Of a stretch of 32,000 bases of DNA, positions 28,158-29,672 are shown piece by piece (the first letter of the stretch is position 1; each line of letters opens with the position of its first letter). The position numbers and the translations under genes are program-made. The notes under the pieces are model-generated. The model ran no database searches. It had not been told where the DNA came from and worked only from the letters and a program-made list of their open reading frames with translations. The stretch is taken from assembly GCF_001644705.1 (NCBI RefSeq), contig NZ_CP015137.1:2790001-2822000 (forward strand). Reading direction: 5' to 3'. The DNA comes from Dickeya solani IPO 2222 (GTDB lineage Bacteria > Pseudomonadota > Gammaproteobacteria > Enterobacterales > Enterobacteriaceae).

Positions 28158-28817
28158 TTAATTAGCGATAAAATTCAGAGAGCCATCCAACGTATAAGCT
28201 AAGTTTTCTGCTCCTGCACCGAAGGGGATTATAACTGGCTTGCCCATGCTATGCTCTGATATACTGCGGTTATACATTGAATACATGGTAGGCAGTACGG
28301 CCCCCTGTTTAAAATCGGTGACAACCAAATAATACGATAATTTTGGTATCATAAAGTAATAATTCATATTAGGGCTGCCCTGCATTATTATTGCAGGCAG
28401 CTTATTTATAAACAAAGCAATACCCATAGTCAGGGCATTGTAAACCGTAAAACTTGAATCGGTTGAGACTTTTAGTTTGTCAGTAATCTTATTGTCTGAA
28501 TAAGGCTTGCCTGAGAAAAAACCGGCATTGTTATAGCCAATAGGTAGTGCATTATTACCCACGACAACATTCGGAGATGCGGGTGTGGGATCTTGCCCTT
28601 GAGAGAATTTCACACCAATATCAATCTGTCCGCTGGTATTCCCCCAACCTAACCCATAATCGTTTCCATCCCATGAGAAGGTAGCATTTCCACTGTTATT
28701 GATCGACTTCAACCACCAGACAAGTGAAAAGTCACTATTGTCTGAAGAATCACCTATATATACGGCCACATTTTGTTGCAGGCCACTCTTATTAGTCACG
28801 GATACTGAATAAGTCAC
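28158..28817 (-). CDS. hypothetical protein, island paralogue A (219 aa)
   Basis: GTG start 7 nt after GAAGGGG. No signal peptide. N/S/T/G-rich and beta-strand-like. Shares collinear blocks with the 29043..29672 product. Confidence 0.75.
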   Translation of the reverse strand: MTYSVSVTNKSGLQQNVAVYIGDSSDNSDFSLVWWLKSINNSGNATFSWDGNDYGLGWGNTSGQIDIGVKFSQGQDPTPASPNVVVGNNALPIGYNNAGFFSGKPYSDNKITDKLKVSTDSSFTVYNALTMGIALFINKLPAIIMQGSPNMNYYFMIPKLSYYLVVTDFKQGAVLPTMYSMYNRSISEHSMGKPVIIPFGAGAENLAYTLDGSLNFIAN

Positions 28818-28948
28818 AATAGGGCCCCTTCTTAAGGCAAGCTTAGACGACAGTGCTTTCTGTGTGATTGGGTGTTCATGATAGGGAATAAAATCATAAC
28901 AAACTGGTTTCTATCAATGTGTGAAGCTCAGGTCACCCTGTTGTTTTT

Positions 28949-28984
28949 CAAAAAACCAACCTGTCGTTTCCTCCAGATTGGTTT
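28949..28984 (-). terminator. terminator between the two paralogues
   Basis: Minus-strand RNA aaccaatctg-gaggaaacga-caggttggtt followed by ttttg. Lies ~60 nt after the stop of paralogue B. Confidence 0.55.
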
Positions 28985-29042
28985 CTCAGACTACAGCTGT
29001 GAATAAAAGCGCTACAAATATCCTTTCGGGAAAAACACTCTA

Positions 29043-29672
29043 TCAGAGCTGAACAAATTGCAACGTATCATTAAGCTCAAACTTCAATGAGGTTACTCCG
29101 TCAGCGAAGGCGAACTGCAGCGGGCTGCTGACAAATGTTCCTGAAACAGCAACACCTATTTTTGAATCTGTTGTACAAATCCAATATGTCGGATGTGTAT
29201 CAAACATGAAGTTCCCATTGGGTTTCCCCTGCATCGCGAATGCAGGCAGGGAATTCATATAAACAGCAAGACTCATCGCTTTGGATTGCGCGACAGTGAA
29301 TGTTGAGTCGGTTTTTACCAGCATGCTACCGGAAGCAACCTCTGGATTATTATATGCCGTCGGCTGTGTCTGGAACTGGCCATTGGTGAAAGTAACCCCC
29401 ATCGCGTTTTTTCCGCCACTGGCCGTAGGATTCATATTTTGGATCGGGCCGCCGGAACTCCAGAGAACACCAGGGGCTAATGGCTGTTCAGTTGTACCCC
29501 AGTTCAGCGCCCAGTCGATTGACCAGTTATAGCTGTTCGTATTGCCATCGTTGATTGTCTGCAGCAGCCATACCAATGGCAAACCGGTGACCAGATTAGG
29601 GTAAGTTTGATAGATGGCGACATTAGCAGCACCGCCGCTAGAGTTTTTAACAGAAATAGAATAGGAAGACAT
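29043..29672 (-). CDS. hypothetical protein, island paralogue B (209 aa)
   Basis: ATG preceded by AAAGGGA. No signal peptide. Same block structure as paralogue A (YSISVKNSSG..NVAIY, LVWLLQTINDGN, KTDSTFTV, LPAFAMQGKPNGNFMF). Confidence 0.75.
   Translation of the reverse strand: MSSYSISVKNSSGGAANVAIYQTYPNLVTGLPLVWLLQTINDGNTNSYNWSIDWALNWGTTEQPLAPGVLWSSGGPIQNMNPTASGGKNAMGVTFTNGQFQTQPTAYNNPEVASGSMLVKTDSTFTVAQSKAMSLAVYMNSLPAFAMQGKPNGNFMFDTHPTYWICTTDSKIGVAVSGTFVSSPLQFAFADGVTSLKFELNDTLQFVQL

Follow-up and report, generated by a model that had tools for sequence, protein, structure and literature searches.

Two adjacent genes of Dickeya solani IPO 2222, read from the same strand within a 32,000-nucleotide stretch of its chromosome (NZ_CP015137.1, positions 2,790,001 to 2,822,000; here referred to as the window), encode diverged paralogues that almost certainly belong to the RhiA family (Pfam PF27136). 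A first-pass annotation of the window, made from the letters alone, had described them as island cargo with no recognisable domain. The family was recently named PSMB, for plant secondary metabolite-binding (Wang et al., Mol Plant Pathol, August 2026; PMC13490719), and the D. solani pair is already catalogued there as two paralogues, of clades 1g and 2b; the assignment is correct and is not new. Beyond that study, we describe a linked gene for a secreted protein, a conserved hairpin between the two paralogues, the limits of the module that carries them and its insertion site at a tRNA-Ile gene, the conservation of the pair across phyla, and a predicted fold that lacks a solved structural relative. 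We assign a probability of roughly 0.6 to the overall explanation that a RhiA/PSMB pair, carried in a mobile module, binds plant defence metabolites, with the ratio of its two members set by the hairpin.

Two diverged members of the RhiA/PSMB family

The products of gene 1 (209 aa) and gene 2 (219 aa; coordinates of all features are given in Table 1) align over their full length with 32% identity and 50% positives (BLASTP, E = 1e-29). This confirms a same-strand paralogue pair, whose boundaries had been given exactly and whose quoted shared blocks are present in the alignment. Relative to gene 1, gene 2 has an insertion of ~11 residues near residues 175-185. The 209-aa protein contains one cysteine and the 219-aa protein none, and neither product has an N-terminal signal peptide, as had been claimed; likewise, each gene has its own Shine-Dalgarno-like motif, AAGGGA 10 nt before the ATG of gene 1 and GAAGGGG 7 nt before the GTG of gene 2. 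Gene 1 is deposited with identical sequence as ANE76020.1, “hypothetical protein [Dickeya solani],” and positions 18158-32000 of the window are 100% identical to chromosome CP051457.1.

A large protein database lists precomputed matches to PF27136, “RhiA,” for the two window genes and for every full-length homologue, and homologues bear the names “Protein RhiA” and “rhizosphere induced protein” in several sources. The published scheme recognises a subfamily 1 of 209 aa and a subfamily 2 of 220-230 aa with an extra protrusion (PMC13490719). Gene 1 has exactly the former length; gene 2, at 219 aa and with its insertion, corresponds to the latter (~220-230 aa) and clusters in a tree with the genes in second position at other loci. 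Furthermore, gene 1 is ~73% identical to paralogue LOZ86_03665 of the Pectobacterium parvum PI-PSMB strain. The connection to rhizobia came via tblastn against plasmids, which reached “protein RhiA” genes on rhizobial Sym plasmids (>93% of length, 23-26% identity), and via hhalign, in which the family profile aligned with RhiA of Rhizobium johnstonii 3841 at a probability of 97.7% (E = 2.4e-12, 189 columns); a word-indexed profile search did not reach rhizobial RhiA. The copies of Pfam-A and NCBIfam used locally gave no match for the pair, that Pfam-A copy predating PF27136, and sequence searches of the PDB with single sequences and profiles gave none. Since PF27136 and the published catalogue place both genes, the description of the pair as lacking a recognisable domain or family no longer holds. 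The idea that the second paralogue is a RhiB homologue was rejected (family profile against RhiB, hhalign probability of 0.09%).

AlphaFold2, given a 51-sequence alignment as input, predicted both proteins to be almost entirely beta-strand, with 14-16 strands in the two models, at high confidence for gene 1 (predicted local distance difference test [pLDDT], 95.3; predicted template modelling score [pTM], 0.89) and gene 2 (pLDDT, 91.1; pTM, 0.87). Both models thus have the all-beta architecture of the family, described as a “butterfly” sandwich. In the gene 2 model, confidence is low only at residues 171-190, coinciding with the 11-residue insertion relative to gene 1, and this predicted segment fits the published subfamily 2 protrusion. 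Foldseek comparisons of both models with the PDB, and of one with the viral structures of BFVD, returned no match at E ≤ 1e-3 and only TM-scores of <0.3; no aerolysin, ETX/MTX2, Cry, Cyt, or lectin fold stood out in either database. Weak recurrent matches to thaumatin-like, chaperone-usher, and PUD-1/2 structures were rejected as noise (probability ≤ 0.35, TM < 0.3). As modelled, the fold is without a solved structural relative. The profile and AlphaFold/Foldseek checks that the first-pass annotation had proposed linked the pair to RhiA and gave confident all-beta models, with no structural match in the PDB.

The same annotation had offered horizontally acquired beta-sandwich lectins or beta-pore-forming/insecticidal toxins as a possible identity. 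Its beta-sheet component is borne out by the predicted fold, and the island location and an N/S/T/G-rich composition would suit such proteins, yet we regard a lectin or toxin as extremely improbable, given the Foldseek outcome in PDB and viral structures (best TM < 0.3), the lack of a signal peptide and of secretion-system neighbours, and the documentation of Rhizobium RhiA as a highly expressed cytoplasmic protein (PMC2275737). Moreover, when 51 family members were compared with the local Pfam-A (without PF27136) at E ≤ 0.01, all 51 were without a match, to toxin and lectin families included. We take that copy to include the PixA model, and no sequence relationship to PixA/AidA (PF12306) was detected in the comparison. 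PixA/AidA proteins, which include inclusion-body and nematode-killing proteins, are likewise small, abundant, and signal-less, often occur as tandem paralogues under quorum-sensing control, and have an unexplained mechanism.

Conserved pairing, an intercistronic hairpin, and a linked secreted protein

We surveyed 15 loci, comprising 13 from a scan of one genome per species, the window, and one Pantoea plasmid; the scan was seeded with subfamily 1 motifs and is biased towards subfamily 1 genes. All 15 have exactly two tandem, same-strand PF27136 genes, with the subfamily 1 gene first and a diverged paralogue second, across three phyla (Enterobacterales, the Burkholderiales Paraburkholderia and Duganella, a Methylococcales metagenome-assembled genome, Nostoc, and two Fluviicola of the Bacteroidota). 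Neighbour-joining analysis places the first genes in a single tight clade and the second genes in a separate one with longer branches, the Fluviicola second genes branching deeper still, nearer rhizobial RhiA. The separation of first and second genes across phyla indicates that the duplication is older than the spread of the pair. The ratio of nonsynonymous to synonymous substitution (dN/dS) between Dickeya and Ewingella is 0.33 for gene 1 and 0.41 for gene 2, and the earlier view of an old duplication kept under selection is supported. In the same comparison, dS of gene 2 is 0.19, ~4× that of its neighbours gene 1 and ORF3 (0.05 and 0.08), which suggests a mosaic history, with recombination having replaced the module's middle gene.

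Whether homologues always occur as pairs, a check raised earlier, receives a divided answer: all surveyed loci are paired, but Pectobacterium carotovorum JFY74 has five 209-aa genes and no subfamily 2 gene, the P. parvum island has four subfamily 1 copies and no subfamily 2 gene (PMC13490719), and Rhizobium has a single RhiA. Given these Pectobacterium loci without subfamily 2 and the activity of one subfamily 1 protein, PSMB1a, alone in Pectobacterium polare, the pair is not an obligatory complex.

The claim of a terminator between the two genes is supported by a stable predicted hairpin followed by a U-run, which a consensus terminator scanner missed solely because its loop is longer than 8 nt. 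A strong hairpin occupies the same position, in the gap between gene 1 and gene 2, at every one of the surveyed loci (the window, L002, and L007-L019). At 13 of them, none of 40 shuffled sequences matched its stability, and at the other two, 2 of 40 did. The stem CCAATCTG/CAGrTTGG is invariant in nine proteobacterial loci and is accompanied by a T-run, whereas the length and sequence of the loop vary; in other taxa, this intercistronic position is occupied by different stems. Because the stem is conserved, the loop is variable, and a U-run is present, the element points to a function in RNA, as an intrinsic terminator, attenuator, or stabiliser, rather than to an operator for a dimeric regulator. 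A plausible effect, judged from sequence features, would be higher output from gene 1 than from gene 2. A 12-nt piece of the hairpin, ACCTGTCGTTTC (+ strand), recurs just after ORF3 at 27582-27593.

Open reading frame 3 (ORF3), the third gene of the module, encodes an unannotated protein identical to ANE76018.1. Homologues of 73-97% identity lie beside the pair in Pantoea (two plasmid loci), Ewingella, Rahnella, and D. zeae, and a homologue is located divergently upstream of the pair in two Yersinia species. Linkage of ORF3 to the pair extends over at least 10 species in 5 genera of Enterobacterales, among them D. solani, D. zeae, Rahnella aquatilis, R. bonaserana, Ewingella, two Pantoea, and two Yersinia species; no other neighbour of the pair is conserved across the surveyed loci. 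An exhaustive HMMER search of 1.84 billion representative proteins recovered 14 relatives of ORF3, all of which have a signal peptide and invariant cysteines at C37, C88, C99, and C126. ORF3 had no match in Pfam, NCBIfam, PADLOC, or the PDB and no informative match in PHROGs. Roles of the pair in anti-phage defence (PADLOC) or as phage structural proteins (PHROGs) were rejected, as neither the pair nor ORF3 had matches there.

A comparable arrangement exists in Rhizobium. RhiA of Rhizobium leguminosarum/johnstonii is homologous to the Dickeya proteins over nearly its full length (24% identity), is of similar size (~22-25 kDa), and is also signal-less, and at both loci a small exported four-cysteine protein is encoded downstream of the RhiA-type gene or genes. 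Rhizobium RhiA differs in an N-terminal extension of ~28 residues. Its locus contains one RhiA gene together with RhiB, whose annotation is that of a tail-fibre protein, and RhiC, and genes of the luxR and luxI types lie on its flanks. Searches with tblastn for RhiB and RhiC homologues over the surveyed loci matched the Rhizobium locus only, and the called genes around the Dickeya module include no LuxR regulator or acyl-homoserine lactone synthase (LuxI). Homology of ORF3 to RhiC was rejected (hhalign probability of 0.07%).

The linkage of ORF3, including its inverted orientation in two of the species, argues for selection on that linkage. It would be expected if the three genes formed one system, with a hetero-oligomer of subfamilies 1 and 2 working with or on the secreted ORF3 product, for example by partnering an exported effector in the cytoplasm, chaperoning it, or acting as its antidote. 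Conservation of the subfamily 1-then-2 order across three phyla would fit this, as would the constraint on ORF3, which is the strongest of the three genes (dN/dS, 0.18), and the coupling of RhiA with the small periplasmic four-cysteine protein RhiC in Rhizobium rhiABC. However, by tblastn, 9 of the 15 loci lack ORF3, and in a D. zeae strain with the module at the same tRNA, ORF3 is truncated to 44 aa while the pair is kept. Together with the Pectobacterium islands that lack subfamily 2, the phenotypes conferred by PSMB1a alone, and the lack of homology between ORF3 and RhiC, these observations make a single three-gene system quite unlikely. A related model, which we consider unlikely, has a heteromeric cytoplasmic binder with a hairpin-set subunit ratio and an exported partner sensing or neutralising small molecules of the host or environment; sequestration of plant metabolites by the lone subfamily 1 copies of Pectobacterium would then be a derived and simplified case.

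A candidate role in binding plant defence metabolites

The role that we favour for the pair, sequestration of plant metabolites, derives from work on P. parvum. There, PSMB1a (LOZ86_RS03680) bound solanidine with a Kd of 0.10 μM and salicylate with a Kd of 9.2 μM in microscale thermophoresis (MST), and its expression in P. polare increased metabolite tolerance and virulence (PMC13490719). Deletion of the four-gene island from P. parvum lowered virulence and made growth in vitro faster, and the P. parvum PSMB genes are induced in planta (PMC13490719). The Dickeya and P. parvum proteins share PF27136, the length of gene 1, and an all-beta predicted fold, and in both organisms the genes reside in AT-rich, horizontally acquired DNA. 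They differ in that Dickeya has one subfamily 1 and one subfamily 2 gene rather than four subfamily 1 copies, and in that its module adjoins tRNA-Ile(CAT) and has the secreted-protein gene and the intercistronic hairpin. Neither the third, secreted-protein gene nor the hairpin is mentioned in that article (PMC13490719).

By homology to this one subfamily 1 paralogue, we give about even odds to binding of plant defence metabolites by the Dickeya proteins, with a rise in tolerance to them. In the mechanism that we propose, the two single-domain, all-beta, signal-less, and presumably abundant proteins would reside in the cytoplasm. By extension from P. parvum PSMB1a, a groove in their beta-sandwich would accommodate plant defence metabolites of hydrophobic or phenolic character, for example salicylate or the aglycones of steroidal glycoalkaloids. 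Stoichiometric sequestration would raise tolerance during infection and carry a growth cost outside the host. The hairpin would probably end part of the transcripts, leaving gene 1 product in excess over gene 2 product. The pair, ORF3, and the AT-rich upstream region move horizontally as one module, which in Dickeya lies beside tRNA-Ile(CAT) downstream of rpoD.

D. solani is an aggressive pathogen of potato, a plant whose defence includes steroidal glycoalkaloids. If its pair binds compounds of this kind, as the Pectobacterium relative does, the module would constitute a transferable tolerance and virulence factor of soft-rot bacteria and plant-associated Enterobacterales. No structure of a RhiA/PSMB family member has been solved by experiment, and what the family does in Rhizobium has gone unexplained for decades; the two-paralogue arrangement, the hairpin, and the linked secreted protein offer handles on its mode of action.

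Several points weigh against metabolite sequestration as the function of the Dickeya pair. Evidence of binding comes from one paralogue (identity to gene 1, ~70-75%) in a single study, which used MST and two ligands selected after docking, and PSMB1a works alone in P. polare (PMC13490719). Pectobacterium islands hold four or five subfamily 1 genes with no subfamily 2 gene. No RhiB, RhiC, or LuxR lies beside the Dickeya genes, so regulation differs from that of rhiABCR. The family is also present in Nostoc, Methylococcales, Fluviicola, and, as MrpA, Microcystis; no plant metabolite suggests itself as a ligand in these organisms, and the ancestral function may therefore be broader.

Its occurrence in such non-plant bacteria also favours a different account, in which the proteins are RhiA-family members whose real role is not sequestration of plant metabolites and whose binding of them in vitro is incidental hydrophobic binding. 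They might instead bind another small molecule (a bacterial signal, a pigment, a lipid, or a metabolite of the cell's own) or be abundant stress or storage proteins. Levels of MrpA in Microcystis respond to microcystin and light, Rhizobium RhiA is under quorum-sensing control, with a function long unexplained, and the binding evidence comes from a single MST study, all of which lend this account some weight. It sits poorly with the decrease in virulence upon deletion of the P. parvum island and the increase in metabolite tolerance from heterologous PSMB1a (PMC13490719), and with enterobacterial carriers that are mostly plant-associated (Dickeya, Pectobacterium, Pantoea, Rahnella, and Ewingella). 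We consider it possible, though doubtful, and retain binding of plant defence metabolites as the preferred reading.

Two further relatives bear on the family more widely. Of the microcystin-related proteins MrpA and MrpB of Microcystis aeruginosa, MrpA, likened here by description, represents the RhiA family in cyanobacteria, where the Nostoc locus (L016) also carries it; MrpB resembles RhiB and is not a second RhiA paralogue. In a preprint, a “RhiA domain-containing protein” is enriched in a Burkholderia secretome and tied to rhizoxin biosynthesis (bioRxiv 10.64898/2026.09.14.751450). If that protein carries PF27136, an extracellular location would be at odds with cytoplasmic RhiA; the preprint may confuse two things that share a name, the RhiA domain of PF27136 and the rhiA gene of rhizoxin biosynthesis.

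The mobile module and its insertion site

Table 1. Features in and around the D. solani RhiA/PSMB module (positions within the window)
Feature	Position	Strand	Description
Gene 1	29043..29672	-	ATG start, 209 aa; RhiA/PSMB subfamily 1, clade 1g in published scheme
Gene 2	28158..28817	-	GTG start, 219 aa; RhiA/PSMB subfamily 2, clade 2b in published scheme
Intercistronic hairpin and U-run	28950..28987	-	Terminator/attenuator-like; predicted folding free energy (dG) -19.5 kcal/mol, z = -4.5
ORF3 (gene 3)	27611..27994	-	127 aa, predicted Sec-type signal peptide (…SAPAFA/VD), four Cys
Terminator-like hairpin and T-run	27525..27543	-	Downstream of ORF3; consensus terminator scan
Three-gene module	27536..30208		~2.65 kb, 40% GC; ORF3, both paralogues, and ~535 bp upstream including AT-rich tract
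Upstream region carried with module	29673..30208	-	AT-rich tract and ~250-nt conserved proximal leader
Tyrosine integrase remnant	30296..30742	-	C-terminal part only; PHROGs integrase, E = 1e-17
Ant/Bro-N-like anti-repressor fragment	30510..31040	+	Overlaps integrase remnant; PHROGs E = 1e-23; weak Bro-N Pfam match
tRNA with CAT anticodon	31135..31210	-	ileX-type tRNA-Ile2, downstream of rpoD, insertion hotspot; ARAGORN, Rfam

The pair, ORF3, and the upstream region are shared as a unit among genera, with an overall nucleotide identity to Ewingella and Rahnella of 88-95%: by blastn, positions 27578-30208 align with Ewingella at 90-95% identity and positions 27536-30193 with Rahnella at 89-93%. 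The hairpin downstream of ORF3 is the probable end of the transcription unit. The upstream region is on average 87% identical to that of Ewingella, and its proximal ~250 nt (29673-29920) are ~95% identical between Dickeya and Ewingella, a value higher than that of gene 2. Within this leader lie the motif TTTGCACAAT at 29779-29788 and, at 29742-29755, the palindrome TCGTTC-TT-GAACGA; the blocks TTTGCACAAT and TCGTTC-NN-GAACG are found in Yersinia and Pantoea as well. Rfam searches of the leader and intergenic regions identified tRNA only. A sigma-70 consensus scan found sites no more often than in shuffled sequence, and no promoter was assigned.

The extremely AT-rich tract reported upstream of the pair at 29750-30170 is as described, with 23% GC compared with 56% in window positions 1-27000, and silencing by H-NS would be plausible on the basis of this composition. 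An apparent 155-bp strain difference within the tract (L004 positions 8859-8958, corresponding to window positions 29860-30114) consists of 100 Ns and is an assembly gap.

Some 0.9 kb separates the module from tRNA(CAT), which is annotated as tRNA-Ile in E. coli, and both phage remnants, of an integrase and an anti-repressor, sit between the two. In Rahnella (Yersiniaceae), the three-gene module is ~400 bp from tRNA(CAT) downstream of rpoD-mug, the same hotspot as in Dickeya (Pectobacteriaceae). It is located at the same tRNA in D. zeae, at another site in Ewingella, and on plasmids in Pantoea. A housekeeping family or a core gene, either of which would have refuted the first-pass reading, is not indicated: none of the 5,426 complete E. 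coli genomes searched has the module. The description of the genes as island cargo is upheld by low GC, adjacency to the tRNA, the integrase and anti-repressor remnants, and the cross-genus identity of the module. Among the hallmarks of tRNA-associated islands, the locus has tRNA adjacency, atypical composition, and patchy distribution; an intact integrase and att repeats are lacking, and we found no convincing repeat of the tRNA 3′ end and no convincing terminal inverted or direct repeats of the module. A decayed integrative element or island is supported, since only the C-terminal integrase remnant and the Ant-like fragment persist, without att or terminal repeats.

A 14-nt direct repeat, AGGGGACAAAAGGG at 27321-27334 and AGGGGACAAAAAGG at 31047-31060, brackets the whole low-GC region; it is probably due to chance and could be a relic of island ends. 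In the D. zeae strain with the truncated ORF3 (L020/L021), a block of genes for a TetR regulator, an aldo-keto reductase, two short-chain dehydrogenases/reductases, and a zinc-dependent alcohol dehydrogenase is missing, and the pair abuts apbE. The counterpart of this block in D. solani occupies ~22.4-27.8 kb of the window (22438-27778), and its loss is probably a deletion in D. zeae. Finally, a ~145-bp repeat forming an imperfect palindrome occupies an intergenic low-GC stretch at window positions 13392-13537, with copies upstream of the RhiA pair in Pectobacterium peruviense and in the Yersinia frederiksenii locus (L010 positions 5094-5237 and L008 positions 1003-1128). Judging from the enterobacterial repetitive intergenic consensus (ERIC), we take this repeat to be an ERIC-like element, probably unrelated to the RhiA pair.

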